64,000 nt of DNA from Thermomicrobiales bacterium (GTDB lineage: Bacteria > Chloroflexota > Chloroflexia > Thermomicrobiales > UBA6265), in NCBI GenBank assembly GCA_020853615.1, contig JADYYO010000342.1:3172-67171 (forward strand). Direction: 5' to 3'. Below the pieces are notes generated by a model, which saw nothing but the letters and a program-made list of their open reading frames with translations, did no database searches and was not told the DNA's origin. The position numbers were made by a program, and so were the translations under genes. This document shows, piece after piece, positions 20,893-52,726 of the stretch (its first letter is position 1; each line of letters starts with the position of its first letter).

Positions 20893-21464
20893 GGGTGGTG
20901 ACACTACGCGATCCACCGGGCGGGTTCTAGCGCCGTTCGTGCGGCGTTTTCGCGAGCCCCGATCGCGCACGGGCGCAGCTTTCGATCGCCACCAGGCCGA
21001 GACCGTTGTGGCGTTTGGGTGCCGCTCGAGCGCGCGGGCAACGCCAAACCGCCGCGCAACTGCGCTCGGGGCCCGGTTTGGCGTTAGCGGATCCTGTTGC
21101 CAAAACGCGGATCGCGGTGCCGTTCCGGAGCGATCGATGGCGCGCAAGCGCGATCTGCGGCCTGGTACCGCGGTGGCCCCGGTCCCGCGCTGGACCGGGC
21201 GCCGGATGGCCCCGGTGCGATGCGATGCCACACCAGCCTACAGTGTAGGTGTTGCGGCCCGCAACATGGTTAAAATCCCCCGCCAACCTGTCAGGTTCCC
21301 GGACACTTTCCGGTGGATTTTCACCACGTGCCCGGTCAAGTACCCGGAAACACTGCGCCTAGAACCCGGCATGCCGGATGCTTTGACCGGGAATGCGGCC
21401 GGAATCCTCCGGCGCCCCCGGCTGGACAACCGGGGCCCGTCAACCCTCACCGACAGGATACCCG
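20893..21464. promoter_or_regulatory. 572-bp divergent control region between late (-) and early (+) operons
   Basis: Lowest-GC stretch. TTTGGCG/CGCCAAA inverted repeats (21010-21108). Palindromes CCTACAgTGTAGG (21237-21249) and GTTGCGgccCGCAAC (21251-21265). TAAAAT box at 21271-21276. CCGGA-N4/5-TCCGG palindromes at 21299-21313 and 21399-21412. Confidence 0.6.
20901..20906 (-). promoter_or_regulatory. -10-like TAGTGT, 8 nt upstream of GTG 20892 (leaderless late-operon promoter candidate)
   Basis: Minus strand reads gatcgcgTAGTGTcaccacccGTG. Confidence 0.35.
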
Positions 21465-22160
21465 ATGCTGGCGACCGAAAGCCGCGCCCATGGCGCGGTG
21501 GTACAGTGCCCGTCCTGCGCCTGGACGGGGCCGCGCACCGCGCGGGGCCCCATCCCAGCGCACAAGGTGATTCGGCTGGCGGGCCCGGGCGATCGACTCG
21601 CCTCCCGCCACCGCGGGGCCGCTCCCGTGGGACCCCGTCCCGCGTGCGCGGGCCCCATGTCCGACCGGCAGATCGCCCGGGCCATCGCCCGGACGTTCGC
21701 TGCGGTGCGCATGCCGGACCTTGCGCGACTCTCGACCACGCTTCCCCCCGATCTCTGGGCTACCAGCGCGCTGTACCGCGCGCTGGCCCCGATGCCGTGG
21801 GCCCGCTACGTGGTGCGCGTGCTGGCGCCGCTGGACCACGACGGTTCGCGCCGGACCGTGGTGCAAGCGTTCCACGTCCGGGCCCATGCGGAAGCGTGGG
21901 CCCACGCGTGCGCGCTGGCGCTGGGCCCCGCGGGGACCAGCGCGCGCACCGCGGGCTACGTGACCGTGGGTGCGCTGGACACCCGCCCCAAGCGGTGGGC
22001 CACCATGGCGAGCTACTACGGGCGGGATCTGGGGCTCGAGTCCCCGGTCACGTACACCGCGATCGATCCGGGTGGCGTGGTGTTCCGGTACACGGATCCC
22101 GCGCACTACCCCGGCCATGGCGACGCACCGTCGCGTGACGCGTGGGATCGGATCTGGTGA
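21465..22160 (+). CDS. hypothetical early protein
   Basis: ATG 21465 (MLATESRAHGAVVQCPSCAW); alternative start 21657 (MSDRQIARAIAR); the C-terminal 160 aa clearly look like protein. Confidence 0.55.
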   Translation: MLATESRAHGAVVQCPSCAWTGPRTARGPIPAHKVIRLAGPGDRLASRHRGAAPVGPRPACAGPMSDRQIARAIARTFAAVRMPDLARLSTTLPPDLWATSALYRALAPMPWARYVVRVLAPLDHDGSRRTVVQAFHVRAHAEAWAHACALALGPAGTSARTAGYVTVGALDTRPKRWATMASYYGRDLGLESPVTYTAIDPGGVVFRYTDPAHYPGHGDAPSRDAWDRIW

Positions 22161-30929: not shown

Positions 30930-30945
30930 TGGTAGCGTCGCTGGC

Positions 30946-31191
30946 ATGGGATCGCTCTTGCGGCGCTGCGCGCCGTTCGTCGCCGTGCTGGCCTCGCTCC
31001 TGATCGCCTGCGCCACCCACGGCTGGACGCCGTGGTGCTGGGCCTGCGCGTGCGTCTGGACGGGCGACGCCCCGGCCACCCGGGCCAACGTCGACGGGGC
31101 GCTCTGCGCCTACCACGAGGCGCACGACGACGACGCGATCGTGCCGACGTGCCAGCGGTGCCTGATCGAGCGGGGGCTGGTCGCGATCTGA
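30946..31191 (+). CDS. small Cys-rich membrane/secreted protein
   Basis: MGSLLRRCAPFVAVLASLLIACATHGW...; the upstream part of tracked ORF 30841-31191 overlaps the 39-aa gene in another frame. Confidence 0.5.
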   Translation: MGSLLRRCAPFVAVLASLLIACATHGWTPWCWACACVWTGDAPATRANVDGALCAYHEAHDDDAIVPTCQRCLIERGLVAI

Positions 31192-33017: not shown

Positions 33018-33026
33018 TGGTAGCAT
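33018..33026 (+). promoter_or_regulatory. extended -10-like TGGTAGCAT upstream of the SLT gene
   Basis: Identical 9-mer to 40208-40216. Confidence 0.3.
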
Positions 33027-33058
33027 GACCCCCAGCTTTCCCAGGCTGGGGCCCCGCG

Positions 33059-33679
33059 TTGCTGCCCACGACCTACGATCCGCTGTTCCGCCGCTACGCG
33101 GGTTCGATCCCGGTCGCCTACCTGCGCGCGCTCACGCAGCGCGAGAGCGGCTTCAACCCCCGCGCCAACGCCGGCAAGGCGGCCGCGCAGGGCCTGCTGC
33201 AGATCACGACCGTGGCGCGCGACGCCTTCAACCGCGCCCAGGGCACGAGCTACACGCGGGACGACACGCTCGATCCCGAGGTGAACATCCGGATCGCGAC
33301 CAACCTGCTCCAGCGCATCATCGCCAGCTACCGCGCGCACCCGAGCGCCAACATGCGCGAGGACTGGAGCAACCCGGCGTTCGTCCAACTGCTGACCGCC
33401 GGCTGGAACGCCGGCTACTCCGAGGGCGGCGGCGTCGGCAAGGTCGCGCGCTACCTCGAGCAGCGCAACCTGCCGGTCACGCCCGCCACGGTCTACCAGC
33501 ACGCCGGCGCGGCCGGCGCGGTCGCGTTCTTGTCCGATCCGGCCCGGGCCCGCTGGCACCAGTCGGTGGCCGAGCTCTACCTGGCGCAGCCCGATCGCGC
33601 CTCCGCCGCCACGCCGGCGCTGGGCCTGCTGGCCATGGCGCTGCTCGCGTGGGGCGGCTACACCCTGCTGACGAGGTGA
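33059..33679 (+). CDS. lytic transglycosylase (SLT domain) with C-terminal TM anchor; endolysin candidate
   Basis: LTQRESGFNPRANAGKAAAQGLLQIT (catalytic-Glu motif ES-GLLQI); TTG start; ends LGLLAMALLAWGGYTLLTR. Confidence 0.75.
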   Translation: MLPTTYDPLFRRYAGSIPVAYLRALTQRESGFNPRANAGKAAAQGLLQITTVARDAFNRAQGTSYTRDDTLDPEVNIRIATNLLQRIIASYRAHPSANMREDWSNPAFVQLLTAGWNAGYSEGGGVGKVARYLEQRNLPVTPATVYQHAGAAGAVAFLSDPARARWHQSVAELYLAQPDRASAATPALGLLAMALLAWGGYTLLTR

Positions 33680-35623: not shown

Positions 35624-35878
35624 ATGAAGATCGTCGACGCCCGCTCGGGCAAGGCCGTCCAGATCGGCCAGACGATCAAGTACCCGTGGACCCCGGAGTT
35701 CCAACCCCACGGGCCAGAGTGGATCAGGCTGGTCGACGTCCGTCCCGGCATCTGGAGCGCGAGCGCCATCATCCAGCGCGGCAACGGGGTGCGGTCCGAG
35801 ACCCTCGAGATCCCGCTGGTCGTGCGCTGGACGCACCCGAGCTACTTTCTGCAGCACGTCGCGTTTCTGCCGACGTAG
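35624..35878 (+). CDS. hypothetical small protein (84 aa)
   Basis: MKIVDARSGKAVQIGQTIKYPWTPEF... Confidence 0.65.
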   Translation: MKIVDARSGKAVQIGQTIKYPWTPEFQPHGPEWIRLVDVRPGIWSASAIIQRGNGVRSETLEIPLVVRWTHPSYFLQHVAFLPT

Positions 35879-35881
35879 ACT
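35876..35881 (+). promoter_or_regulatory. TAGACT box, 7 nt upstream of ATG 35889
   Basis: cGTAGACTGcggcgcATG; the TAG is the stop of the upstream gene. Confidence 0.45.
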
Positions 35882-35888
35882 GCGGCGC

Positions 35889-36452
35889 ATGCGCTCTCCC
35901 ACGAACCTCGAACGCCGCCCGATCAACCGCTGGGACTCCTTCGCCACCGACGAGTTTCGCCACCGCGCCTACCTGTTCGGGAGCGGGAACATCGGACGCA
36001 TGGACCACTGCAACATGGACGTGCCGGGCTCGCTGTCGCCGGACCTGACGACGGTGATCGAGCACGTCTACGCGCGGACCGAGGCGGCCCCGCGCGATCT
36101 GGTGGCGACCCTCGATCTCCATCGGTGGGCCAGCCACGCGGTCGTCCGCTTGCTCGTCGGCGACAAGCCGCGCCGCGTGTTCGCCCTGGCGGATCTGCTG
36201 CAGGAACGTCCGTGGGAGCCGGCGGCCATCGCGATCGCGCGCGAGATGGAGGCCGGCGAGCCCGCGGCGGCAGGAGTGGTCGCGGCCTACAAGGAGCGTC
36301 TCGGACAGCGGCGCGGCGACGGGCCGCCGGGGGTGGAGGTGCCGGTGCGCCAGTACGTCGCCGTCGACATCGATGCTCCGGACTGGCCGCCCGGGCCGCC
36401 GACCCGGATCTGGATCCATCTCGAGGGCTTCCAGGTCTGGCCGCAGTGCTGA
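35889..36452 (+). CDS. hypothetical protein (187 aa)
   Basis: Full ORF MRSPTNLERRPINRWDSFATDEFRHRAYLFG... Confidence 0.7.
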   Translation: MRSPTNLERRPINRWDSFATDEFRHRAYLFGSGNIGRMDHCNMDVPGSLSPDLTTVIEHVYARTEAAPRDLVATLDLHRWASHAVVRLLVGDKPRRVFALADLLQERPWEPAAIAIAREMEAGEPAAAGVVAAYKERLGQRRGDGPPGVEVPVRQYVAVDIDAPDWPPGPPTRIWIHLEGFQVWPQC

Positions 36453-36653: not shown

Positions 36654-36659
36654 TAGACT
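36654..36659 (+). promoter_or_regulatory. TAGACT box, 7 nt upstream of ATG 36667
   Basis: gtGTAGACTGcggcccATG. Confidence 0.45.
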
Positions 36660-36666
36660 GCGGCCC

Positions 36667-37687
36667 ATGAAGCTCTCCGTCATCACTCCGACCTGTCGCT
36701 CCAACCCGCGGTTCGCGGAGATGGCGGCGACGCTCCTGCAGTCGTTCATGCGCGCGCCGGCGACGACGCTGCTCGAGTGGCTCATCGTCGACGAGGTGCT
36801 CTGGCGCGATCCGCCCGAGGAGCGCCTGGCGCCGATCACCGAGGCGCTCGCGACACTGCCGCTCGAGGTGCGCCAGCGGATCCACGTCGATCACTTCGCG
36901 CCGCCGCCCGGCCAGCACCGCGGCCCCGACATCGCCGACCCGCTGCCCGCCCACAACACCGCGCGCAACGCCGGCCTGGCCGCGGTCGCGCCGGACAGCC
37001 GCTACGTCATCATCCTGTCGGACTGCTCGCTCGTCACGTCCGACTGGGTCACCGTCGCGTGCGAGCTGGCGCAGCAGCACGTGGGCTGGAAGTGCCGGCT
37101 GGCGCAGGTCCACGACATGGTCGTGCCCCACCACCAGCCGCTCCGCTACCAGGACGCGTGGGACACGTTCCACCCGGTCGCAGCGACGACGGTGGCCGGG
37201 CCGTGCTGGGGCGCGCCGCTCGACGCGTTCCTCGCGGTGGGCGGCTTCGACGCCGACTACGACGGCGAGGACGACTACTACGACCACGAGATCCTGCTGC
37301 GCCTCAGCCGCGTCGGGATCCAGTTCCACACCACCAAGCGCGCCGGCGTCGTCCGGCTCCGCCGCACCCTCGTCAAGCACGAGGTGACCAACCACCGCGA
37401 GGTGCTCCATGCGAAGCGCAACGTCGCCTTCTACCGCGCCCTGGCCGCCGACCGCGATCGTCTCCTGCCGGGTGGCAACGCCACCGGAGGTGCCCAGCTT
37501 GGCCGAGGCGCCCCCCACCAGCCGCCGCGTCCCGCTCCGGCTCCGGCTCCGGCTCGCGTGGCGCCGCCTGTGGCGGCCGGAACGCGTCGGGTTCCGGGCG
37601 CTGGCGTTCCGCCGGCGCGACCTGCACCGGCGCGTCCTGCGGCTGCACCTGCTGCAGACCACCGGCTCGCGGTGGGATCCGCCGTGA
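36667..37687 (+). CDS. family-2 (GT-A) glycosyltransferase; reading frame switches +1 near 37450-37500
   Basis: MKLSVITPTCRSNPRF..., GGFDADYDGEDDYYDHEILLRL. GC3 collapses in the starting frame after ~37455 while the +1 frame has high GC3 and stops at 37685-37687. Confidence 0.6.
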
Positions 37688-39309
37688 CGGCCGCGCCGCC
37701 GGTCGCGCGCAGGAACGATCCCCTGACGCCGGCGGCGCACGCGAGCGAGATCTGCGGCTACGTCCACGACGGCACCGCCTGCAAGCTGGTCACCGGCCAC
37801 GCCGGCGCGCACGTCTTCGGGACGCCCGAGTGGGTGTTCGGCGTCGACCCGGCGACGTACGTGCCGCGGTACCGGGAGCTCGAGGCCGCGATGGCCGAGC
37901 GCCGCCTCGCGATCGCCGATCCCCAGACGCCGGCCGAGCGGATCGAGCCGCTCAAGGCGGAGATCGCGGGGCTGGCCGACGAGCAGTCCGATCTCTGGTA
38001 TGCGCTCAGCCCGGCGCAGAAGGACGAGGTGGACCCCGAGGGCGCGCAGGCGCGCGCCTACGCCCGCGAGGCGGGCTCGATCCCGCAGGAGGCCCCGCTG
38101 TCGCTCCACGAGCGCGCCCAGCAGGCGAAGGCGGCCAAGGCGGCCCGGGTGGCGGCCGAGCAGGCCGGGACCGCGCCACCGCTGGCGGACGACGAGCGCT
38201 GCCCGTACACGCCCACCCAGGGGAGCTACGCCGGCATGCGTTGCCGCCACCGCGCGCGCCACGGCGGGCCGCACGCCTACATCGGCCAGACGCCGGCGGC
38301 GCCGGCGGCGCCCGCGGCCAAGAAGCCCGCGCCCACCGTGCCCCGCACGCCGCCGCAGCCCACCGCGGCGATCCAGCAGACGATGACCGCGCTGGCGGAC
38401 CACGGCCAGGTCGTGGTCGGCGAGCTCGCGCTCCTGCCCAAGAACCGCGCCCGGATCGCGGTGGCGATGGCGGTCGCGCTCCGCCAAGACGGGCTGCTCA
38501 CGCTCGAGGCCGACTACCGGCAGTTGCTGACCGAGATCGCCGCGGTCGAGTTCGGGCCGGCCGGCAACGCGCGGTCGGCTCTCGACGAGACGCCCGAGGG
38601 CTGGCTCGCCCAGCGGATGTCGACCTACGCCGGCGCCGAGCTCGACGCCGACCTGGCCGGCGTGGCCGAGATCTGCCAGATGCTCCCGGCGATCCCGGTC
38701 TCGCAGGTCGCGTTCCGCGCGCTCCACGACCACGCGCTGCAGGTCGACCGCTGGCGGGCCGCGAGCGGGCTGTCGCCCCGGGCCGAGATGAAGCTGATCG
38801 ATCGCGCCTACGCCTGCGCCGCCGACCACGGGATCGCGCTGACGCCGCCCGACGACTTTGGGGACTACGCGCTCGACGAGCTGGCCGAGCTCGAGCGCGC
38901 CAACGCCGAGGTGGGCCAGGACGAGATCGCGTCGGTCGAGCCGCTCTCGGCGGCGGCCGCCGCGTGGGAGGCGATGGGCCCGGTCCGGGCGATCGTCCAC
39001 ACCGACGCCTACCTGCAGGCGATCGCGCACGCCAACGGCATCACCGTCGACGAGGCGCAGCGCCGGCGGGACCAGCCGGTGACGCCCGCCGATCAGCCGC
39101 ACGACGACTACGCGACGATCGTGCGCTGGGTGGCGCCTGCCGACGTCACCGGGTTGCTGGCGAAGAACTGGGTGCTGGTCAACGAGGACGACCAGGATCA
39201 GCTCCGCACCTGCTGGCCGCTGCCGGAGCCCGAGTGGCCCGAGGAGCGCCAGCTGGCGTGGGTGCCCGACGCCGACGCGGTCGCGATGCTGACGCTCGAT
39301 CCGCTGTAG
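37684..39309 (+). CDS. hypothetical protein (541 aa) with two Cys/His motifs
   Basis: GTG 37684 in a GTGA overlap with the +1-frame stop; CGYVHDGTACKLVTGHAGAHVF and CPYTPTQGSYAGMRCRHRARHGGPHAY; GC3 high again from here. Confidence 0.6.
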   Translation: MTAAPPVARRNDPLTPAAHASEICGYVHDGTACKLVTGHAGAHVFGTPEWVFGVDPATYVPRYRELEAAMAERRLAIADPQTPAERIEPLKAEIAGLADEQSDLWYALSPAQKDEVDPEGAQARAYAREAGSIPQEAPLSLHERAQQAKAAKAARVAAEQAGTAPPLADDERCPYTPTQGSYAGMRCRHRARHGGPHAYIGQTPAAPAAPAAKKPAPTVPRTPPQPTAAIQQTMTALADHGQVVVGELALLPKNRARIAVAMAVALRQDGLLTLEADYRQLLTEIAAVEFGPAGNARSALDETPEGWLAQRMSTYAGAELDADLAGVAEICQMLPAIPVSQVAFRALHDHALQVDRWRAASGLSPRAEMKLIDRAYACAADHGIALTPPDDFGDYALDELAELERANAEVGQDEIASVEPLSAAAAAWEAMGPVRAIVHTDAYLQAIAHANGITVDEAQRRRDQPVTPADQPHDDYATIVRWVAPADVTGLLAKNWVLVNEDDQDQLRTCWPLPEPEWPEERQLAWVPDADAVAMLTLDPL

Positions 39310-39312
39310 ACT
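39307..39312 (+). promoter_or_regulatory. TAGACT box, 7 nt upstream of ATG 39320
   Basis: ctGTAGACTGgagcgcATG; the TAG is the stop of the upstream gene. Confidence 0.45.
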
Positions 39313-39319
39313 GGAGCGC

Positions 39320-39937
39320 ATGGCGCTCGACCTCGGCTTCCGGAAGCCCGTCCCCGACAACGTCTTTGCCGAGGTGATGAGCGGGTGGGGCCGGCCGCGC
39401 GCCGGCGGCAAGGAGCACTCGGGGCTCGACATCCTCCTGCCGATCGGCAAGCCGGTCGTGGCGATGGCGGACGGGCAGGTGATCCGCGTCCAGGCCACCG
39501 ACGACGGCGGCTCGGCCGGCATCTTCCTCGTGATCCGCCACCCGTCGGGGATCTCGAGCCGCTACATCCACCTGGGCCGGGCCGACGTGCGGCTCAACCA
39601 GCAGGTCGCCAAGGGCCAGGTGATCGGCGCGTCGGGCAACACCGCGATCAAGAACAGCCCGCCGCACATGCACGTCGACATCAAGGTGCCGGCGGCGCTC
39701 TTGCCGCAGATCGAGGCGGCCGCCGGCAAGCCGCCGGGCGGGTGGCACCCGCTGGTCAACCCCTGGGGCTACGGCGTGCCGGCCGAGCCGTGGATCCCGG
39801 TCGACCGCTACTCGGCCCGGACGCTCGAGGACGCGCAGCGCAACGGGATCCCGCTCTACCGGGGCGGGGCCGCGAAGGCGGTCGGGCTCGCCGCGCTGCT
39901 GCTCTTGGGCTGGGGGCTCTACCGCCTGACGCGCTAG
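39320..39937 (+). CDS. M23/LytM metallopeptidase with C-terminal TM anchor
   Basis: HSGLDILLPIGKPVVAMADGQV, RYIHLGRADVRLNQQVAKGQVIGASGNT, PPHMHVDI; ends AVGLAALLLLGWGLYRLTR. Confidence 0.8.
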   Translation: MALDLGFRKPVPDNVFAEVMSGWGRPRAGGKEHSGLDILLPIGKPVVAMADGQVIRVQATDDGGSAGIFLVIRHPSGISSRYIHLGRADVRLNQQVAKGQVIGASGNTAIKNSPPHMHVDIKVPAALLPQIEAAAGKPPGGWHPLVNPWGYGVPAEPWIPVDRYSARTLEDAQRNGIPLYRGGAAKAVGLAALLLLGWGLYRLTR

Positions 39938-40200
39938 ATGCGCTCGCGGATCTGCTGCGGCTGGGCCGGCCCGTCGATGCGGGGTTGCGCCGGGGCCAAC
40001 GGGAAGTCGCGCAGGGCCTCGGCGCGCGCCGCGTCGTTCATGCGGAGGAGCTCGTCGTTGTGCGCCTTGCACAACCGCGGCTCGAGGCCCTCGGCAAAGA
40101 CGCCCAGGGCGATGTCGTAGAGGACGGTGTACTCGGCCGGGCTCGCGCACCGGCAGCACGTGGCCGGCGCGGGTGGTTCGACAACGTCGGTGTTCGGCAT
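39934..40200 (-). CDS. hypothetical small protein (88 aa)
   Basis: Full ORF MPNTDVVEPPAPATCCRCASPAEYTVLYDIALGVF...; convergent overlap with the M23 gene stop. Confidence 0.65.
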   Translation of the reverse strand: MPNTDVVEPPAPATCCRCASPAEYTVLYDIALGVFAEGLEPRLCKAHNDELLRMNDAARAEALRDFPLAPAQPRIDGPAQPQQIRERI

Positions 40201-40206
40201 CCGACG

Positions 40207-40216
40207 ATGGTAGCAT
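40207..40216. promoter_or_regulatory. overlapping divergent -10 boxes in a 23-bp intergenic gap
   Basis: Plus strand TAGCAT (40211-40216) + 7 nt + ATG 40224. Minus strand TACCAT (40212-40207) + 6 nt + ATG 40200. Confidence 0.45.
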
Positions 40217-40223
40217 CGGCCCC

Positions 40224-40571
40224 ATGTACGCGTGGCCCGACGATGCCCCCCGGATCAGCCCCACCCCCGCGCTCGAGGCGCACTACCGCGCGGCGATCGC
40301 CGCGTCGGTCGCGTGGCTCGAGGCCAACGCCGCGCCGGCGCCGACGTGGAGCGGCGGCCACCACGCCAGCCCGGCGGATCCCGCCGCGCAGGCGCACCAC
40401 GCCGCGATCGTGGCGGCGATCGCGGCGCAGCCCGGGCCGACGCCGCAGGGCCTCGCGCTCCGGACGATCGTCACCGTCGCGGCGCGCTGCGCGTTCGTCG
40501 CGCGCGCCGGCGGCTTTGGCGAGGCGGGCTGGGCCAAGGTGCGGGCGACCTTCCAGAGCCCGCGGTCGTAG
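40224..40571 (+). CDS. hypothetical Ala-rich protein (115 aa)
   Basis: MYAWPDDAPRISPTPALEAHYRAAIAASVAWLEAN... Confidence 0.6.
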   Translation: MYAWPDDAPRISPTPALEAHYRAAIAASVAWLEANAAPAPTWSGGHHASPADPAAQAHHAAIVAAIAAQPGPTPQGLALRTIVTVAARCAFVARAGGFGEAGWAKVRATFQSPRS

Positions 40572-40573
40572 CC

Positions 40574-41188
40574 GTGCCGATCCGCGGCCAGCGCGTCGTG
40601 ATCGTCGGGGACAGCCTGTCGGCCGGGCCGCACACGCCCGGCCAGGTGCTGGCCGATCGGCTCGCCGCCGCCGGCGCCGACGTTCGCGTGAACGCGCGCG
40701 TCGGGCGCAGCGCCAACAACTTCTACGGCCGCGAGGACTGGCGGGGCCAGCTGCAGCAGATCGCGGCGACGCACCCCGACGTCGCGATCGTCGTGCTCGG
40801 CACCAACGACATCGGCCTGTCGATGACCGTCGACGCCCAGCGCATGACGCAGCTCCGCGACGCGCTCGCCGGCGCCGGCGCCGACGTCTACGCGTTCGGG
40901 CCGCCGACGTTCCCGCCCGGCACCCGGCTGGTCGCCGGCCAGCCCCAGGTCGTGCGGATGATGCGCGACGTGTTCGGCGGTGATCGCTTCATCGACCTGA
41001 CGCCGCTGACCGCCGACCTGGTGACGAGCCAGCACCGGACCGGAGACCAGGTTCACTTCACCGCCGCCGGCGGCGACGTCGCCGGGCAGCGCATGGCCGA
41101 CGCGTTCCTGCGGGCCTCGAGCGCGCCGGGCGGCGGCTGGCCGGTCGCGGTCGCGCTGCTCGTGGCCGGCTGGTTCCTGCTGCGGTAG
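40574..41188 (+). CDS. SGNH/GDSL hydrolase (esterase) with C-terminal TM anchor
   Basis: GTG start; VVIVGDSLSAG (block I), VLGTNDIG (block III), GDQVHFT (block V DxxH); ends GGWPVAVALLVAGWFLLR. Confidence 0.75.
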   Translation: MPIRGQRVVIVGDSLSAGPHTPGQVLADRLAAAGADVRVNARVGRSANNFYGREDWRGQLQQIAATHPDVAIVVLGTNDIGLSMTVDAQRMTQLRDALAGAGADVYAFGPPTFPPGTRLVAGQPQVVRMMRDVFGGDRFIDLTPLTADLVTSQHRTGDQVHFTAAGGDVAGQRMADAFLRASSAPGGGWPVAVALLVAGWFLLR

Positions 41189-42118
41189 CTACGGCTGGAG
41201 GCCGTAGGCGTAGTTCATCGGGATGCGCTGCTCGATCCCGTCGAACCAGACGTGGGCGCGGCCCGGGATCCGGACCTGCTTGCCCCAGCCCTTGGTGCCG
41301 GTGAAGACGTCGAAGTGCGCGCCGAAGATGCCGCCGCCGGTGTCGTTCACGGTCACCCAGCCGTCGTGGACGTCGCCGCCCGGCAGGCGGAGCCCGACGA
41401 GCTCGAGCACCCAGACCCGGGTGCCGGCCGGCACGACGCCGCCCAGGCTCGCGTAGCGATCGTCGTGCCGCGGCAGCCGGCCGTTGTCGGCGGCGACCGT
41501 GCGGAACGGCCGGCACTCGATCCCCTTGGCGCAGATCGGCCAGCCGCCGGGCCCGGGCCGCTTCACCGCGAACGTGCGGACCTGCGTCACCTGCTGGCCG
41601 CTGACCCGCAGCCCGGCGTACCCCGGCTTGTTGGGCAGCCAGCCGTTGCGCTGCGCCAGCGCCAGCACCGGCTTGTAGAGCGGGGCGTCGGCGCCGGCGT
41701 CGCGCCAGCCGCTCACGTTGATCAGCCGCCCGTCCGCGAGGATGCTCGAGCCCTCGAGCGAGGCCTCGACGAACGCGTGGGCGTTGACCGGCGCGAGCAC
41801 GTGCCCGTCGGCGCCGTAGAGCGGCACCTGGCCCGGGCCCCACGGCTGGACCATGCCCACGTGGTAGTAGGTCAACTGCCAGCGGCGCATCGACTGGATC
41901 TGCGCCGGCGCGCTGCGCTGCAGGGCCTGCGCGATCGGCGCGAGGACGTGGTCCGTCTTGGCGCCGAACCACCCGTCGGCCTCGCCGCACGCCGGGTAGT
42001 CGCGCTGGAAGCGCCGCAGGTCGTCGCGCCAGTTCTCGCCCTCGTAGTCGCCGTCCACCTCGCCGTCGTAGTAGCCCAGCTTCTGGAGTGCGGCCTGTGC
42101 CTCGGGGATGCTCAGCAT
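41189..42118 (-). CDS. peptidoglycan-binding domain + 3D (MltA/RlpA-like) domain muralytic protein
   Basis: LQKLGYYDGEVDGDYEGENWRDDLRRFQ...ADGWFGAKT; C-terminal VNDTGGGIFGAHFDVFTG. Confidence 0.75.
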   Translation of the reverse strand: MLSIPEAQAALQKLGYYDGEVDGDYEGENWRDDLRRFQRDYPACGEADGWFGAKTDHVLAPIAQALQRSAPAQIQSMRRWQLTYYHVGMVQPWGPGQVPLYGADGHVLAPVNAHAFVEASLEGSSILADGRLINVSGWRDAGADAPLYKPVLALAQRNGWLPNKPGYAGLRVSGQQVTQVRTFAVKRPGPGGWPICAKGIECRPFRTVAADNGRLPRHDDRYASLGGVVPAGTRVWVLELVGLRLPGGDVHDGWVTVNDTGGGIFGAHFDVFTGTKGWGKQVRIPGRAHVWFDGIEQRIPMNYAYGLQP

Positions 42119-42149
42119 GGCCGCGAGCGTACCCCGGGCCGGCCCGGCG

Positions 42150-42554
42150 TCACCAGTCGAACGGGAACGCGCCCTCGGCGTTGCCGTGGCGCTCGCGACC
42201 GCCGGCGGCGACGTAGCGCTCGACGTCGGCCGCCAGGTGCGCGGGCACGTCCGCCGGCGCGGCGCCTTGGCCGAGCTGGTAGGCCCAGACCCGCACCGCG
42301 CGCTCGTGCGCCGCGATCGCCGCCGGCGTCGGCGGGATCCACGGGATGCGCGACGCGGGCGCTGACGACCACCGCGGAAGCGCCAGTGGCACCGGCGGGG
42401 GAGGCTCGGGCCGGCGGGTCAGGGCGACGTACGCGGCGGCGCCGGCAAAGCCGCCCACGACCGCGGTGGCGATCGGGTGGCGGCGAAAGAAGCCGCCTAC
42501 GGCCCGGGCGACGTCGGGATCGTTCAAGAGCCCGAGCAACCCCGGCCCGCTCAT
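42150..42554 (-). CDS. membrane protein (134 aa)
   Basis: Start MSGPGLLGLLNDPDVARAV (ATGA overlap at 42551-42554); helix HPIATAVVGGFAGAAAYVAL. Confidence 0.6.
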   Translation of the reverse strand: MSGPGLLGLLNDPDVARAVGGFFRRHPIATAVVGGFAGAAAYVALTRRPEPPPPVPLALPRWSSAPASRIPWIPPTPAAIAAHERAVRVWAYQLGQGAAPADVPAHLAADVERYVAAGGRERHGNAEGAFPFDW

Positions 42555-42859: not shown

Positions 42860-43048
42860 CTACATCACCTTGTAGTGCGTCCAGTCGCCGTGGTTGCGCG
42901 GCTTGACCGAGAAGTTGTCGCCGCGCTTGAGCTTGCGCTTGCGCGGCATCTCCAGGTAGGCGCGCTTGGCGCCGTCCAGCGAGCGGGCGTTCACGGTGCT
43001 CATGCGGCCGTCGGGGCCGCGCACCAGGTACATCTCGACGGCCGACAT
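42860..43048 (-). CDS. small basic protein (62 aa)
   Basis: MSAVEMYLVRGPDGRMSTVNARSLDGAKRAYLEMPRKRKLKRGDNF...; first gene of a 3-gene minus-strand operon. Confidence 0.65.
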   Translation of the reverse strand: MSAVEMYLVRGPDGRMSTVNARSLDGAKRAYLEMPRKRKLKRGDNFSVKPRNHGDWTHYKVM

Positions 43049-43120
43049 CGGGCCATCATCCTACCACCACGTGGCGATTGCTGTCAGGTCGCACCTCGGG
43101 CCCGGGTACGATGCGCCCGC
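43049..43120. promoter_or_regulatory. 72-bp divergent promoter region (candidate genetic switch)
   Basis: Minus strand CTGACA-N18-TAGGAT (43063-43058) + 9 nt + ATG 43048. Plus strand TACGAT (43107-43112) + 8 nt + ATG 43121. Palindromes CCACGTGG (43067-43074) and CGGGCCCG. Confidence 0.45.
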
Positions 43121-43324
43121 ATGCTGTCTCCCTCCGCCAAGGCCTTCCGGCTCCAGCTCATCGCCGCCGCCCACTGCAAGGGCCTCGCGAGCGGCGTCCA
43201 CCTGTGGGTCGCCGACGACATCCCCGGCGGGGTGATCTGCGCCGGCTGCGTCGAGCGGCGCGCGCGGGCCGACGTGATCGCCAGCCCCAGCGACGACGAG
43301 CCGCTCGAGGCGACCGCGCCCTAG
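43121..43324 (+). CDS. small protein (67 aa) with CxxC
   Basis: MLSPSAKAFRLQLIAAAHCKGLASGVHLWVADDIPGGVICAGCVERR...; only the tail of tracked 690-aa ORF 41252-43324 is genuine. Confidence 0.6.
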   Translation: MLSPSAKAFRLQLIAAAHCKGLASGVHLWVADDIPGGVICAGCVERRARADVIASPSDDEPLEATAP

Positions 43325-43860: not shown

Positions 43861-43979
43861 CGTGGCGTCCTTCGGTTGAGAGTCCAGTTTCGGTCACGCG
43901 GGCGTTCCTCGAGCTCGGCCAGCGCGACGGTTCCACAGGTCATCCACACCCTGTGGACAACCGCGATCATCACGTTCAT
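43857..43979 (-). CDS. 40-aa ORF coupled by ATGA overlaps on both sides (excisionase/RDF-sized)
   Basis: MNVMIAVVHRVWMTCGTVALAELEERPRDRNWTLNRRTPR; its ATG overlaps the int stop and its stop overlaps the next ATG. Confidence 0.4.
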   Translation of the reverse strand: MNVMIAVVHRVWMTCGTVALAELEERPRDRNWTLNRRTPR

Positions 43980-44833
43980 CGACGTTCCTCGACCGGCGGC
44001 TCGAACATGGATTCGGCGACCCGGTCGATCGCCTCGCCGCGGACGTGGTCGACGTACTGCATCGCCGTCGACAGGTTGGCCCACTGCATGTGCTCCATCA
44101 GCTTCGGGAGCGCCTCGGCGTCGCCGGCGTGGGCGCGCAGGAACGTCACCGCGTAGGTTCGACGCAGCCGGTGCGGGTGCAGCCCGTCGATCCCACACCG
44201 TCCTCCCAGCCGCTTGAGTTGGCGCTGGACCTTCCGGGCCGCGCTCTGCAGCCGCACCTCCTCGTCCTTGGACGTCGGAACGAGCAGGTGCGCGACGGTA
44301 TCCCAGCCGCGCTCGTGCGCGAGCAGCTCGAGCCACGGCTTGAACGTCTTGAGCACGGTGAACTCGAGGTAGCGCCGCCCCTTCGCAACGAACGAGAGCC
44401 GGCCCGTAACGAGCGCGCTGACGATCTGCGCGCGCTGCATCCTCAGCACGTCGGCGTCGCGGAACCCGCGGTATGCCATCAACCCGATCACCGCGCGCAT
44501 CGGCGGTGTAAGATCCTTCGCCGCCCGCACCTCGAGCATGAGCCGCTGCAGCGGCTGGGCGTCGACCGGCACTTTCTCTTTCGCGCGCCGGGGCGGCGGC
44601 AAGCGGAACTCGCCCAACGCCTCGCGCAGCGCAGGGTCCACGGCGTAGTCCGCCCAGCGGCGGGCGGCCGCCCGCACCAACCGGCGCGTCTTCGGCGCGC
44701 CCCGCTTGAGCCGCTCGATCCAGCCGCCGTCCTCGGTCGCGCGCTTCGCGTGGTGGACGTAGATCGCGACCGTGCCGGGCTGGAGCCCGAACCGCCCCAG
44801 GTAGGTGCGGAAGCCGTCGAGCGTGGTGGCCAT
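43976..44833 (-). CDS. int: tyrosine recombinase / phage integrase
   Basis: C-terminal catalytic motifs GLHPHRLRRTYAVTFL (HxLRHT-type) and LMEHMQWANLSTAMQYV (GH..x..T..Y); start MATTLDGFRTYL (a GTG at 44845 is also possible). Confidence 0.85.
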   Translation of the reverse strand: MATTLDGFRTYLGRFGLQPGTVAIYVHHAKRATEDGGWIERLKRGAPKTRRLVRAAARRWADYAVDPALREALGEFRLPPPRRAKEKVPVDAQPLQRLMLEVRAAKDLTPPMRAVIGLMAYRGFRDADVLRMQRAQIVSALVTGRLSFVAKGRRYLEFTVLKTFKPWLELLAHERGWDTVAHLLVPTSKDEEVRLQSAARKVQRQLKRLGGRCGIDGLHPHRLRRTYAVTFLRAHAGDAEALPKLMEHMQWANLSTAMQYVDHVRGEAIDRVAESMFEPPVEERR

Positions 44834-44845
44834 GTCCGAAAACAC

Positions 44846-47225: not shown

Positions 47226-48293
47226 ATGAACGAGACCGACCAGCGCCATCCCGTCAACAGCATCGTCGCGACCGACCACGAGATCCACATCCGCCTCGGC
47301 GGGCTGGCGGTGGCGATCCGCCTTGGCGCAGACGCCACCGACACCGCGGTGATCAACGAGGATCTGTACCTGCCGCTCTACAGCGTGGTTTCGCGCGAGA
47401 TCGCGAAGCGCATCAAGCTTGATGGCAAGTGGCCACAGCGCTTCCGTGAGTTCTTCGAGGCCGACCCCGAGTTCATCAGGAGCTTCGGCGGCGCCATCGA
47501 CGCCTCGATCGCCACCGCTGCCGCGAATGCGCCAGCGACCGACGATGAGCTTGCGGCGCTGTTGCGCGGCGAGAGCCTTCCGCGCGGACGGCGCGTGCTG
47601 GTGATGCAGGCGGCGCTGATCCGGCTCGAGTGGCGGCTCGGGGAGCAGTTGCCGCCGCAGATGCGCGAGATCGGGGCGCGCCTCGAGTCGCTGGAGCGCA
47701 ACATCCAGCAGCTCCGGTCGAACGTCGACGCCAACCTGACGACGCGGATCAGCAAGCTCGAGAGCGACATCACGGCGCTCAAGGTGCAGAAGGGCCACCA
47801 AGGCGACGTCAACGCCGAGCACAAAAAGGCCATCTCCGAGCTCTCGGTCGCGGTCGCCGGCCTCGATCGGGCGGCGCCGCCCGAGCTGGCGTCGCTCGTC
47901 GAGCTGGTGACCGGCCAGCAGGACCAGATCGACAAGCTGCAGGCGATGCTCGAGCCGCGCATCCCCGCCGGTGTGGTCGACGGGCGCCCGGTCGCCGGCC
48001 CGGAGATCGGGATCGCGCTCGACGGCGAGATCGCGCGGGCGATCGACCGCCAGGATCTCGCGACCCGCACGCACGTCGACGAGGCGGTCCGCAGGCTGGC
48101 CGCGACGATCCGCCAGTACGTCCGCGACCAGGTCCAGCAGGCGCTGCGCCGCCGGCCCTCGGCGCTCCGCCGCGTCTGGGACGCGCTCGCCGATCGCGGC
48201 GCGCCGTCCGCGCCCGCACCCGCGCAGGAGCCGGCGGCGGTTCCGCCGGCGATCGCCGAGCTGGCCGAGCAGGCGCTCCGGCGGGGGCGGTGA
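47226..48293 (+). CDS. coiled-coil protein (355 aa)
   Basis: Full ORF MNETDQRHPVNSIVATDHEIHIRLGG...; central heptad-like region (LESLERNIQQLRSNVDANLTTRISKLESDITALK). Confidence 0.75.
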   Translation: MNETDQRHPVNSIVATDHEIHIRLGGLAVAIRLGADATDTAVINEDLYLPLYSVVSREIAKRIKLDGKWPQRFREFFEADPEFIRSFGGAIDASIATAAANAPATDDELAALLRGESLPRGRRVLVMQAALIRLEWRLGEQLPPQMREIGARLESLERNIQQLRSNVDANLTTRISKLESDITALKVQKGHQGDVNAEHKKAISELSVAVAGLDRAAPPELASLVELVTGQQDQIDKLQAMLEPRIPAGVVDGRPVAGPEIGIALDGEIARAIDRQDLATRTHVDEAVRRLAATIRQYVRDQVQQALRRRPSALRRVWDALADRGAPSAPAPAQEPAAVPPAIAELAEQALRRGR

Positions 48294-48298
48294 CCCCG

Positions 48299-49888
48299 AT
48301 GGACGCGTTGCCCGACGGGCCGATCGACGTCGAGATCTTCTCGTGCGCCGGCGGCATGGCCGAGGGGTTCCGGCGCGCCGGGATCACGTTCCACATGGCC
48401 GTCGACATGGCCAAGGACCACTGCGACAGCTACGAGCGCAACCTCGGCCATCGGCCGGTGCAGATGGACGCCCGCGACCTGCTGCGGATGGCGCGCCTGG
48501 GCTGGCGCGTGCCCGTGCGGCTGCTCGTCGCCGATCCGCCCTGCACGCCGTGGTCGCGCGCCGGCAAGCGCCAGGGCGTCAGCGACGACCGCGACATGCT
48601 CCGGCAGACCGCCGAGATCATCGGGCTGCTCCGGCCCCGGGCCTACCTGATCGGCAACGTGCCGGGGCTCGAGGACGCCAACAACCTGGCGGTCGTGCAG
48701 GACGTGATCGGCGGGCTCGCGCGGTGGGGATACTGCGTCAGCGACTTCGCCGCGCTCGACGCGGCCGACTACGGCGTGCCCCAGCACCGCGTGCGGCCGT
48801 TCTGGTTCGGGCACCGCCACGGCCCGTGCCTGCGGTGGCCGTTGCCGACGCACGGCGACCCGTGCGACATCAAGGACACGCTGCCCGGCCTGCCGATGCC
48901 CGCGCCGTGGGTGACGTGCGGGCAGGCGCTCGGTCACCTGTCGCCGCGCGAGCTGGGGCGCATGGTCTGGCTGCGGAAGCGGCCGGCGGCGCCGGCGTCG
49001 GCGCTCCGCGCGAGCGTACCCGAGCGCCCGGCCCGGACCGTCTGCGCCTCGAGCTTGGGCGACGGGAACGTGATCAACTACAGCCGCAAGCACGCGCCGT
49101 CCGCCGGCAACCAGCCCGCCAAGACCGTGCGGACCGGCGGCCGAGGCGGCCACCAGGCCGTCGTCCTCGAGAACACCAACGACTCGGACCCGGGCCAGCC
49201 GGCCAAGACGATCGTCGCGGCCCGGCGAGGCACGCAGGCGATGACGCTGCACGACACGCCCAACCACCCGCCCGCGATGGCGTTTGGCGGCCGCGATGGC
49301 GGCGTCGACCGCACGCACCAGCAAAACAAGCCCGCGCGCGCGATCACGACGCAGACCGGCGACCATGGTGTGCTGGTGCTCGCGATCGAGGGCGCCCGGC
49401 GGCGGGTGCCGCAGTCGGAGCGCGTCGTCGCGACCGATGGCCCGGCGACGACGCTCCAGGCGCGGGAGGATCGGCAGGGCACCGGCATGGTGATGGAGTG
49501 GCCGTGGGCGCGGCCGTCGACGGCGATCATGGCCGATCCCCGGCTGGGCCAGCCGGGCCACAAGGACAAGGCCTGGAAGGGCAAGGGCGGCCAGCGCGCG
49601 CGCGCGAAGCAGCGCGGCGTGCTCTTAAGCGAGCGCGCCGGCGCGATCCTGCAGGGGTTCCCCGAGACCTGGGTGTTCTCGGGCGTCACGAAGAAGACGC
49701 GGTGGAGCCAGATCGGCCAAGCGATGCCGCCGCCCCTCGCGCACGCGGTCGCGCAGAGCATCGTCGCGCAGCTTGCCGCCACCGTCGACGACGGGCCGCC
49801 CGAGAACTACGTGGGCTGGGTGCCCCCGGTCGCGCGCACCGAGTCCGAGGCGCGCGAGCAGCTCGTGCTGGTCGGGGGATCGCCATGA
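48299..49888 (+). CDS. dcm: DNA (cytosine-5) methyltransferase-like, long repeat-containing target-recognition region
   Basis: Motif I IFSCAGGMAEGF, IV DPPCTPWSRAG, VI IGNVPGL (ENV Glu replaced by Gly), VIII QHRVRPFWFG, IX/X LQGFPETWVF...GQAMPPPLA. Confidence 0.8.
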   Translation: MDALPDGPIDVEIFSCAGGMAEGFRRAGITFHMAVDMAKDHCDSYERNLGHRPVQMDARDLLRMARLGWRVPVRLLVADPPCTPWSRAGKRQGVSDDRDMLRQTAEIIGLLRPRAYLIGNVPGLEDANNLAVVQDVIGGLARWGYCVSDFAALDAADYGVPQHRVRPFWFGHRHGPCLRWPLPTHGDPCDIKDTLPGLPMPAPWVTCGQALGHLSPRELGRMVWLRKRPAAPASALRASVPERPARTVCASSLGDGNVINYSRKHAPSAGNQPAKTVRTGGRGGHQAVVLENTNDSDPGQPAKTIVAARRGTQAMTLHDTPNHPPAMAFGGRDGGVDRTHQQNKPARAITTQTGDHGVLVLAIEGARRRVPQSERVVATDGPATTLQAREDRQGTGMVMEWPWARPSTAIMADPRLGQPGHKDKAWKGKGGQRARAKQRGVLLSERAGAILQGFPETWVFSGVTKKTRWSQIGQAMPPPLAHAVAQSIVAQLAATVDDGPPENYVGWVPPVARTESEAREQLVLVGGSP

Positions 49889-50790
49889 CCGACCTGCACA
49901 CGTGGGATCCGGCGAAGCTCGCGGCGGTGCCGCTGCTCAAGTGGGTCGGCGGCAAGAGCGCGCTCCTGCCCGAGCTCCGCAAGCGCCTCCCGACGCGGTT
50001 CGGGACGTACTACGAGCCGTTCGCCGGCGGCGCCGCCCTGTTCTTCGCGCTGGCGGCCGCGGTCGTGCGCCGGGATGCTTATCCGTGGAGCCACATCTCG
50101 GATCTGAACCCGCACCTGATCGGCGCGTACCGCCTCGTGCGCGACCATCCGTCGGAGGTGTTGGCCGCACTGGTCGACTACGAACGGCGCCACGCCACCG
50201 TGCGTCCATCGAAGCGATACCCGGCGCCCGCGCTCTACTACCAGGTCCGCGAGATCTGGAATGCCGGGGCGTTCACGACCGATCACCAGCACGCGGCCGC
50301 GTTCCTGTACCTCAACCGGACGTGCTTCAACGGCATCTGGCGGGTCAACAAGGAGGGCAAGTTCAACGTGCCGGCCGGGCGCTACAAGCGGCCGCGGATC
50401 GCGGACGAACGGCGGCTCCGGGTGTGCGCCGCCGCGCTTGCGGGCGCGCGCGTGGCGGTCGAGCGGTGGCAGGACGCGATCGAGGGCATCACCAAGAACG
50501 ATCTGGTCTACTTCGATCCGCCGTACGTGCCGCTGTCCGAGACCGCGAACTTCACGGCGTACACGCAGCAGGGCTTCGGGAAAGACGACCACGCGGAGCT
50601 GGCGGAGGCTGCGCACGCGCTCGTCCGCAAGGGCGTCCACGTGATCATCAGCAACAGCGACACGCCGGCGGTCCGCAAGCTCTACAAGGGCATGCGGATC
50701 AGCCGGGTGAAGATGGCGCGCTCGCTCTCGTGCAAGGGTGACCGGCGCCAGCCCGTGGGGGAGCTGCTGATCGTCGGAGGCCGACGGTGA
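49885..50790 (+). CDS. dam: Dam-family DNA N6-adenine methyltransferase
   Basis: ATGA overlap; LLKWVGGKSALLPEL, YYEPFAGGAALFF, CFNGIWRVN, VYFDPPYVPLS. Confidence 0.85.
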   Translation: MTDLHTWDPAKLAAVPLLKWVGGKSALLPELRKRLPTRFGTYYEPFAGGAALFFALAAAVVRRDAYPWSHISDLNPHLIGAYRLVRDHPSEVLAALVDYERRHATVRPSKRYPAPALYYQVREIWNAGAFTTDHQHAAAFLYLNRTCFNGIWRVNKEGKFNVPAGRYKRPRIADERRLRVCAAALAGARVAVERWQDAIEGITKNDLVYFDPPYVPLSETANFTAYTQQGFGKDDHAELAEAAHALVRKGVHVIISNSDTPAVRKLYKGMRISRVKMARSLSCKGDRRQPVGELLIVGGRR

Positions 50791-52099: not shown

Positions 52100-52621
52100 T
52101 CAGGCGGGGTCGGGGGCGTCGGGGCCGCCGACCGCGCCGGGGATGTCCTCGGCCAGCGCGACGTTCGGCTGCGGGTGGCGCGCGCAGAAGTGGTAGGTCT
52201 CGAAGGTCGGGGTCTCGGGCTCGTCGGTCTTCATCAGCAGCACCGAGACCGCGTCCATGACCGCGCCGTCCTCGACGTTGCCCTTCTTGAGCACGTCTCG
52301 GACCACCTGCAGGTCGGCGCGCAGCTTGTCGCACTCGTCATCGGCGTGGCCGATCTTGGTCATCAACTCGTCGACCAACGCGATCGCCCGCTGGCGCTCC
52401 TGCCCGTTGGCCTTGAGCATCTCGGACAGCGAGGCCCAGAGCGGCGCGATCGCCTTGCGGAGCCGGCCGCCGGCGGTGACGCCGTGGACCTCGGGCAGCT
52501 TTGCCGCCCACCACCCCTCCGGCAACTCGGCCCCGCAGAGGGCCGGCGCCTCGACCTGCTGATCGCAGGCCTGCTTGGTGGCGGGGTCGATGCCGTCGCA
52601 GAACAGGAAAGCCTTGTGCAT
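52100..52621 (-). CDS. hypothetical protein (173 aa)
   Basis: Full ORF MHKAFLFCDGIDPATKQACDQQVEAPALCG...; convergent with the upstream gene. Confidence 0.75.
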   Translation of the reverse strand: MHKAFLFCDGIDPATKQACDQQVEAPALCGAELPEGWWAAKLPEVHGVTAGGRLRKAIAPLWASLSEMLKANGQERQRAIALVDELMTKIGHADDECDKLRADLQVVRDVLKKGNVEDGAVMDAVSVLLMKTDEPETPTFETYHFCARHPQPNVALAEDIPGAVGGPDAPDPA

Positions 52622-52726
52622 GCGGGTACGATAAGCCCGCTCGGTTGACGGTCAATGGCGAGGCTGCATATACTTCCGAACACCTACGGGCGCGACCTCC
52701 CTCAGCGCACAAGTCGGAGCCCCAGC
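52622..52726. promoter_or_regulatory. back-to-back divergent promoters sharing a palindromic -35
   Basis: Plus strand TTGACG (52645-52650)-N18-TATACT (52669-52674), then GGAG + 7 nt + ATG 52727. Minus strand TTGACC-N16-TATCGT (52633-52628) + 6 nt + ATG 52621. Core TTGACgGTCAA. Confidence 0.6.

Follow-up and report, generated by a model that had tools for sequence, protein, structure and literature searches.

In the 64-kb stretch of Thermomicrobiales contig JADYYO010000342.1 analysed here (64,000 nucleotides, hereafter the window), two small genes diverge from a gap of 23 bp, and the gap holds two overlapping hexamers that resemble bacterial -10 promoter elements facing in opposite directions. 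The minus-strand gene encodes a protein of 88 amino acids (aa) and starts at CAT 40198-40200, the A of its ATG lying at 40200; the plus-strand gene encodes a 115-aa protein and starts at ATG 40224-40226. They are flanked by genes for an M23 peptidase and a GDSL/SGNH lipase-esterase (Table 1). Comparisons were made with five close and three distant lineages found through a protein database, the distant ones by way of the M23 gene. Searches of IMG/VR, JGI metagenome contigs and GTDB genomes for either small protein returned one locus only, which was already known.

Both open reading frames (ORFs) at the gap look like real genes. In a sequence of 72.5% G+C overall, the G+C content at codon positions 1, 2 and 3 is 0.72, 0.49 and 0.94 in the minus-strand frame and 0.73, 0.66 and 0.97 in the plus-strand frame, and an independent gene caller applied to public contigs calls both genes, and the gap between them, identically. 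Third-position changes just inside the minus ORF show its real start to be the ATG at 40200. An in-frame upstream GTG at 40173 is an unlikely start for the plus gene, since third-position G+C drops in the extension and the ATG is conserved in all relatives. A plus-strand ORF at 39938-40120, considered in place of the minus gene, is ruled out by the G+C pattern at the first two codon positions.

Within the gap, TAGCAT (40211-40216) lies 7 nt 5' of the plus ATG, and ATGGTA (40207-40212), which is TACCAT when read on the minus strand (40212-07), lies 6 nt 5' of the minus ATG. Their overlap is the TA at 40211-40212. These start codons, the length of the gap, the hexamer positions, the spacings and the 2-bp overlap had been given in an initial annotation of the locus, and all were correct when re-checked on the sequence. 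Unnoticed at that stage was an extended -10 element (TGnTAnnnT) readable on both strands, as TGGTAGCAT at 40208-16 (+) and as TGCTACCAT at 40215-07 (-). These two 9-mers overlap by 8 bp inside a 14-bp near-palindrome of the form CGATGsTAsCATCG, here CGATGGTAGCATCG.

Overlapping -10 elements on opposite strands, with reciprocal pairing of key -10 bases, are one mark of a bidirectional promoter in the sense of Warman and Grainger and are seen here, and a TANNNT hexamer 5-8 nt from the start codon, the arrangement of leaderless genes, is present at both starts. The gap contains no GGAG, GAGG or AGGA in either direction, as in leaderless genes that lack a Shine-Dalgarno (SD) sequence; many other genes of the element carry AGGAG. 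Between 39600 and 40830, some 600 bp to either side, TAGCAT and TACCAT are the sole TANNNT hexamers on either strand, and the full two-sided pattern CAT-N6-ANNNTANNNT-N7-ATG occurs once against 0.00 expected. Since TANNNT is also depleted in the window as a whole (see below), the two-hexamer arrangement is more than a chance match.

Table 1. Features of the divergent locus and of the surrounding window (window positions; L numbers denote related lineages)
Feature	Position	Strand	Basis or remark
M23 peptidase gene, upstream	39320-39937	+	Pfam Peptidase_M23, 6.8e-22
88-aa accessory gene, minus partner of the pair	39934-40200	-	gene calls, G+C pattern, homologues
Divergent intergenic gap, putative shared promoter core	40201-40223	.	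23 bp, ccgacgatggtagcatcggcccc, also written ccgacgATGGTAGCATcggcccc
TGCTACCAT, candidate extended -10-like element (hexamer TACCAT, 40212-07) for the minus gene	40207-40215	-	implied start 40200, A of ATG
TGGTAGCAT, probable extended -10 element (hexamer TAGCAT, 40211-16) for the plus gene	40208-40216	+	implied start 40223/40224, leaderless mRNA
115-aa gene, four-helix protein, plus partner of the pair	40224-40571	+	third-position G+C 0.97, homologues
GDSL/SGNH lipase-esterase gene	40574-41188	+	Pfam Lipase_GDSL_2, 6e-16
Peptidoglycan (PG)-binding/3D-domain protein gene	41189-42118	-	
TANNNT-N7-ATG sites	30933-30948, 35876-35891, 36654-36669, 39307-39322, 40211-40226	+	also in L002, L005, L007, L010, L012, L014, L015
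TANNNT-N7-ATG site	42116-42131	-	
Second TGGTAGCAT copy, intergenic, 5' of an SLT-domain gene (33059-33679)	33018-33026	+	conserved in L005 at 51-59
Integrase gene	43976-44845		
C5 and N6 DNA methyltransferase genes, adjacent	48290-50790		

The plus-side hexamer belongs to a signal that recurs throughout the element and its relatives. The window holds 61 TANNNT hexamers, where dinucleotide-preserving shuffles give 155.5 +/- 12, a 2.5-fold depletion which fits a host where a bare -10 hexamer suffices to start transcription. TANNNT-N7-ATG, on the other side of the comparison, is found at nine sites against 1.6 expected, a number reached in none of 100 shuffles. At objectively called starts there are seven hits against 0.17 expected (P ~7e-10), with a peak at spacing 7. 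Independent gene calls on related contigs place the hexamer 5-8 nt before 24 of 66 starts, with 10-17 such hexamers per contig in all. The genes concerned carry it 6-8 nt, mostly 7 nt, before the ATG and are mostly without an SD sequence. About one third of genes show the form G-TANNNT-N7-ATG with C at -1 and no SD, four consecutive same-strand genes among them. At two of these sites, 35876 and 39307, each followed by a 10-nt gap, the TAG of the hexamer is at the same time the stop codon of the upstream gene, which is not so at 36654; the site at 39307 (TAGACT-N7-ATG) is the M23 gene's own and is kept in relatives.

In a logo of the spacing-7 sites, the constrained positions are the preceding G, the T1, A2 and T6 of the hexamer and an invariant C(-1) before the A(+1) of the ATG; the middle three bases vary freely (TAGACT, TAAGCT, TAGCAT, TACGCT, TATCGT). 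The T-A-N-N-N-T constraint, the C(-1)A(+1) and the genome-wide depletion favour an element that acts in DNA. Judged from its letters, the signal is the signature of a sigma-70-family -10 element with a pyrimidine/purine start site and is unlike a translation signal. An invariant C(-1)A(+1) is also consistent with an mRNA whose 5' end lies at the start codon; the minus site of the divergent pair has G at -1.

On the plus side, conservation and statistics make it very probable that the box is a genuine -10 element serving a leaderless mRNA. Five lineages, two of them without a minus gene, show no change in the 12-mer TGGTAGCATCGG or in its distance of 7 nt from the ATG, and the flanks vary: the four nucleotides before the ATG read cccc, ggcc, cggc or cgac, and further upstream carriers and non-carriers of the minus gene have unrelated DNA, the 5' end of that gene in the former and the 3' end of the M23 gene in the latter. 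Conservation of the plus box extends to distant homologues, that of the minus box to three related lineages only. Because the same box and spacing are present in relatives without the minus gene, the plus-side box is, by this comparison, older than the gene pair. It was suggested in the initial annotation that any -35 or other upstream element would have to lie inside the coding sequence of the neighbouring gene. That is so, yet the relatives differ completely upstream of the same TGGTAGCAT, so that the plus promoter must be -35-independent, and an E. coli-type -35/-10 scan of the region was empty. One candidate -35 element, TCGACA at 40178-83, was ruled out, lying 27 nt from the hexamer. The GDSL lipase gene starts 2 nt after the 115-aa gene, in a synteny held in all relatives, and is probably part of its transcription unit.

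A second copy of TGGTAGCAT stands before the SLT-domain gene, followed by a stem-loop (33018-33058 in the window, CCCCAGC-N8-GCTGGGG; 51-92 in L005, GGCCCC...GGGGCC). Here the same promoter may occur in a leadered form, the 5' leader being structured.

On the minus side, the case for a -10 element is weaker, though plausible. The box and its 6-nt spacing are kept in all three gene-bearing lineages, and base 40207 is G in L007, a lineage without the minus gene. The minus gene has no SD sequence in the gap and no other TANNNT on its strand within about 600 bp. Both of the spacing-6 hits in the window are at real gene starts, the other being 52621. The proposal that TAGCAT and TACCAT serve the plus and minus genes has fared unevenly: the two hexamers are the best -10 candidates at leaderless distances, with comparative and statistical support that is strong on the plus side and moderate on the minus side.

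The minus gene is present or absent as a unit among syntenic relatives, as expected of an accessory cassette. It is found, at 88-91 aa, in the window (L001), L002-4 and L010, and the gap is 23 bp in every carrier; it is identical in L001-L004, and in L010 it has the same length with three substitutions, all outside both hexamers. In L005/6 and L007-9 the gene is absent and the 115-aa gene directly follows the M23 gene on the same strand, across gaps of 16 and 27 bp. The present or absent unit amounts to roughly the ORF and 7 nt, between the M23 stop codon and TGGTAGCAT; the stop codons of the two genes overlap in the CTAG at 39934-37. No terminator for the 88-aa gene was found by an intrinsic-terminator scan, so that a cassette with its own terminator is not what is seen. 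The tree splits the window, L002 and L010 from L005 and L007, which is consistent with a single event, either a gain or a loss, in a tree without an outgroup.

The 88-aa gene is also a hotspot of divergence. Between the window and L002 its product is 75% identical, with a synonymous divergence (dS) of 0.24 and a ratio of non-synonymous to synonymous divergence (dN/dS) of 0.78, and the boundaries are sharp at the gene edges; the flanking genes are 96-99% identical (dS 0.05-0.10, dN/dS 0.06-0.30) and the 23-bp gap does not differ at all. Across comparisons the dN/dS of the gene is 0.66-0.78, against 0.06-0.32 for its neighbours. A hotspot in which dS is raised as well suggests diversifying selection or cassette exchange. 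The N-terminus of the protein and a Cys/His pattern, CCxC...CxxH, are kept in three lineages (identity 75% in L002, 60% in L010), and it is probably a small zinc-binding protein. Its AlphaFold2 (AF2) model is of low confidence (predicted local distance difference test, pLDDT, 66), and the Foldseek matches, all to small zinc modules, are non-significant. In its NCBI entry it is a hypothetical protein from a Thermomicrobiales metagenome-assembled genome (MAG), on an 80-kb contig. The 115-aa protein is 75-96% identical to its homologues in close relatives and 33-45% in distant ones; its AF2 model (pLDDT 86) has no fold match in the PDB by Foldseek. Neither protein has a match in Pfam, PHROG, PADLOC or NCBIfam, or to a DNA-binding family.

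In the distant relatives the order M23 ... GDSL ... 3D-domain gene is kept and the slot after the M23 gene is variable. L014 has a 115-aa homologue (45% identity) with TGGTAGAAT 26 nt upstream, and in the slot an unrelated reverse gene of 98 aa with its own TACGAT-7-ATG, the two promoters being set apart across a 69-bp gap. The homologue in L015 has TATGAT-8-ATG, and the unit of L012 begins with a phosphatase-like gene that has TAGGAT-6-GTG. The slot between the M23 and GDSL genes is an accessory-gene hotspot in these lineages (L012 5600-6606; L014 5618-6690; L015 5076-5528), occupied in L012 by the dual-specificity-phosphatase-like gene, in L014 by the reverse 98-aa gene and an extra 103-aa gene, and in L015 by an extended homologue of 150 aa. 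The divergent arrangement is not conserved as a unit, given that the plus box occurs without the minus gene in L005/6 and L007-9 and that the promoters of L014 stand apart across a 69-bp gap.

The reading that best accommodates the observed geometry, conservation, enrichment and presence/absence pattern, and to which we assign a probability of about 0.6, is that the two divergent genes share one near-symmetrical promoter core which starts both mRNAs at their start codons, that is, a bidirectional leaderless promoter. The host polymerase would use promoters reduced to a -10 element (TANNNT, often with an upstream G or TG), starting transcription at or next to the start codon and giving leaderless mRNAs. 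An ancient promoter of the form TGGTAGCAT-N7-ATG, just 3' of the M23 gene, would head a unit comprising the 115-aa and GDSL lipase genes. In one clade the fast-evolving 88-aa gene lies in reverse against this promoter, and it was gained or lost as a single compact unit. TGGTAGCAT comes close to being its own reverse complement, and a single added base, A40207, would complete TGCTACCAT at 6 nt from the minus ATG. The gap would then be a minimal bidirectional promoter with canonical starts at 40200 and 40223/40224, 23-24 bp apart, in which the T-12/A-11 pairs of the two hexamers pair with each other as a shared TA step. RNA polymerase would bind in either orientation and probably not in both together.

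Several points weigh against this reading. No promoter was returned by a consensus -35/-10 scan (E. coli-type) of 38800-42300, so that a canonical sigma-70 promoter, with a TTGACA-like hexamer 16-18 bp before the -10 element, is not what lies here. Leaderless genes were estimated as rare among the Chloroflexi analysed in 2011, at only about 5% in four of 12 genomes (PMC3160421), and the identity of the host is a MAG bin label only. Promoters before four consecutive same-strand genes would be unusual, which leaves room for a role of the motif in RNA. The remaining points concern the minus box. The conserved plus element already fixes five of its six hexamer bases as well as its TG, leaving A40207 and the 6-nt spacing as independent features; L005 reads ATGGTA without having the minus gene, the A being supplied by its TGA stop codon. 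The box departs from the family consensus in its spacing of 6, in the C before the hexamer and in the G at -1, and sites with spacing 6 show no overall enrichment (2 sites, 1.5 expected). The three carriers, moreover, share ancestry, and their agreement counts for less than three independent observations.

These features of the minus box are what would be expected if only the plus box were a promoter and the minus TACCAT a by-product of -10 near-symmetry, the 88-aa gene being expressed in some other way or very poorly. One such route would be read-through from the minus-strand operon 43048-41189, antisense across the lipase and 115-aa genes, and no terminator was detected between 42118 and 40200, which makes read-through possible. 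An mRNA with a long leader would however translate poorly, since the minus gene has no SD sequence in the gap, and a by-product would not account for a start codon placed exactly 6 nt away in three of three carriers, nor for the position of the window's other spacing-6 match at a real gene start, 52621. The analogous reverse gene of L014 has its own TACGAT-7-ATG, and near-symmetrical -10 elements usually fire both ways (bioRxiv 10.1101/2020.01.31.928960). A promoter serving the plus gene alone is an unlikely account, if the one to be taken most seriously beside the bidirectional core.

A rather improbable elaboration is promoter capture with a regulatory outcome. The reverse accessory gene would have landed against the ancient extended -10 element and come to be expressed by way of the one base that completes the mirror-image -10. 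With both mRNAs leaderless and each open complex excluding the other, the outputs of the two genes would be truly anticorrelated, and the fast-evolving, zinc-finger-like 88-aa protein might bind the near-palindrome and so bias the orientation of the polymerase. Only lineages with the minus gene preserve the near-palindrome CGATGGTAGCATCG; L007 does not have it. On the side of timing, the accessory gene would perhaps be expressed from the prophage and the 115-aa/lipase unit perhaps late.

The initial annotation went further and proposed that the overlap is a built-in mutually exclusive switch, because two polymerases cannot occupy both boxes at once; the 88-aa gene and the 115-aa/lipase unit would then be anticorrelated as a regulatory device. 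The exclusion itself is probable as a deduction from footprints: with predicted starts 23-24 bp apart each polymerase would cover the other promoter, in agreement with published bidirectional promoters (PMC12825309). Overlapping promoters do work in this way at the PCR/PM pair of EcoRV (PMC5333194), and the 14-bp near-palindrome could be an operator. The step from exclusion to a built-in switch is not borne out. The plus box predates the pair, so that the arrangement was not built as a unit, the same box and spacing being present in relatives without the minus gene; the pairing arose or vanished by a single gene gain or loss. Neither a regulator gene nor a conserved operator came to light, L007 does not preserve the palindrome's left arm, and neither small protein matches a DNA-binding family. 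In L014 the equivalent promoters stand apart across 69 bp, so overlap is no conserved requirement. Steric competition, finally, is small at basal activity in bidirectional promoters of E. coli (PMC12825309). A dedicated switch is accordingly very unlikely.

Equally remote is the view that the motif acts at the level of RNA or protein binding (as a non-SD translation signal, a processing site, a hairpin or an operator), with both genes present only on longer RNAs. It draws on the motif before four consecutive same-strand genes with 10-nt gaps, on TAG as a stop codon at 35876 and 39307, which would permit coupling or re-initiation, and on the same-strand succession of M23 and 115-aa genes in relatives without the minus gene; but constraint falls precisely on T1, A2 and T6 of a -10 element and on C(-1)/A(+1), the middle bases being free, the genome-wide depletion of TANNNT is what one would expect of a bare hexamer that fires transcription, the TAG at 36654 is not an upstream stop codon, the minus gene cannot be in a plus-strand polycistron, and the gap folds no better than shuffles (z -0.6 to +0.8), with no conserved hairpin and no relevant match in Rfam.

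A bidirectional leaderless core would bring together features known from several systems. Among bidirectional promoters, common separations between start sites are 18, 10 and 23 bp (PMC12825309; bioRxiv 10.1101/2020.01.31.928960), and in E. coli competition between the two directions is negligible at basal activity, appearing when one direction is strongly activated (PMC12825309). The promoters described by Warman and Grainger (bioRxiv 10.1101/2020.01.31.928960, PMC10268837, PMC12825309) have a near-symmetrical -10 element read on both strands, with starts 7-25 bp apart; divergent intergenic regions and horizontally acquired DNA are enriched in them, and polymerase binding in one orientation excludes the other. 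The hexamers at the present locus predict starts at 40200 and 40223, which would place it in the 23-bp class. It differs from the commonest class, that of 18 bp with A-11 and T-7 reciprocal, in sharing T-12/A-11, as we deduce from the geometry. It would also differ in that both products are leaderless, so that the intergenic region is the core and nothing else.

The pattern seen here is a published mark of leaderless genes in high-G+C bacteria, where TANNNT stands ~12 bp upstream of the start (PMC3160421). Divergent leaderless pairs are known from M. tuberculosis (PMC3898074); closely juxtaposed divergent promoters have been reported, as has a divergent pair, prpD/Rv1129c, whose mRNAs are both leaderless. 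In Actinobacteria and Deinococcus-Thermus (PMC3160421, PMC3898074, PMC12340547) such genes have TANNNT ~12-13 bp before the start, no SD sequence and a weak or absent -35 element, and coexist in the genome with SD-led genes, all of which resembles the present case. What sets the latter apart is its phage-like setting, with a host labelled Thermomicrobiales (Chloroflexota), together with a modal spacing of 7 nt and the invariant C(-1). Cluster O mycobacteriophages (PMC4351075) offer a parallel in their divergent promoters PL1/PR2 and PL2, both predicted to be leaderless, and in a gene within the structural operon that runs in reverse from a leaderless SigA-type promoter of its own. Their promoters, unlike those discussed here, have a recognisable -35 element and longer AT-rich intergenic regions, and no shared -10 element has been reported. 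In the EcoRV restriction-modification system (PMC5333194) overlapping divergent core promoters likewise exclude double binding of polymerase; a C-protein regulator and mapped operators make that system a timing device, and none is evident here.

Phage morons are accessory genes inserted between conserved genes, and the classic ones bring their own promoter and terminator. The 88-aa gene is moron-like in being small, fast-evolving, present or absent in close relatives, located in a variable slot and opposed to the operon. It is unlike a classic moron in bringing 7 nt of non-coding DNA and no terminator, and in apparently using the core of its neighbour's promoter in reverse. The locus fits known promoter categories and adds no new principle; what is particular is its extreme compactness, the apparent sharing of a pre-existing core by an accessory gene, and the novel phage family in which this occurs.

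The window looks like part of a novel temperate phage or phage-like element; that it is viral, and which host it has, are deduced from gene content and bin label. It consists of long same-strand blocks of small, tightly packed genes and, in addition to the proteins already named, encodes a holin-family protein, an SLT transglycosylase and a ParB-like protein. Most of its proteins are without a Pfam or PHROG match, and among the larger ones almost none has a match; an 880-aa protein (36667-39309) and all proteins of the left block (78-20970) are examples. Genes for a terminase, portal or capsid protein were not recognised in the window, no nucleotide similarity to known phages was detected and no prophage relatives were found in GTDB genomes. 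A 129-kb viral contig in IMG/VR (L016) encodes an M23 homologue of 49% identity, downstream of which it is too divergent to compare.

Three further sites in the window are of interest as candidate control regions. A second close divergent pair, 52621 (-) and 52655 (+), is separated by 33 bp (window 52619-52674); TACGAT at 52627-32 (+) and TATCGT at 52633-28 (-) overlap by 5 bp, the classic 18-bp bidirectional geometry, and a near-consensus TTGACG-18 nt-TATACT at 52645-52674 in the plus direction would put the real plus start 3' of 52655. A third pair, 43048 (-) and 43121 (+), lies near the integrase gene with a gap of 72 bp (window 43046-43123) and encodes proteins of 62 and 67 aa without a family match. 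The minus ATG is preceded by TGGTAGGAT at a distance of 9 nt and the plus ATG by TACGAT at 8 nt, and the gap could be a regulatory region. Finally, a 13-bp palindrome, CCTACAGTGTAGG, at 21237-21249 contains three overlapping TANNNT hexamers. It is situated in the principal divergent intergenic region, a gap of 656 bp (20971-21626) between the left (minus) and right (plus) blocks, where it is a candidate operator or bidirectional promoter of the main control region.

If confirmed, the divergent pair would be a very compact natural example of a bidirectional promoter, with 23 bp, no -35 element and no leaders. Through the symmetry of a -10 element, a new gene would here be seen to borrow its neighbour's promoter in reverse and be expressed at once, an illustration of the idea that bidirectionality aids the expression of horizontally acquired genes. 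The broader pattern may outweigh the pair itself: around a third of genes in an uncultured phage family have -10-only signals of leaderless type, with TANNNT purged elsewhere, and this bears on gene calling, promoter prediction and host inference for very G+C-rich phages.

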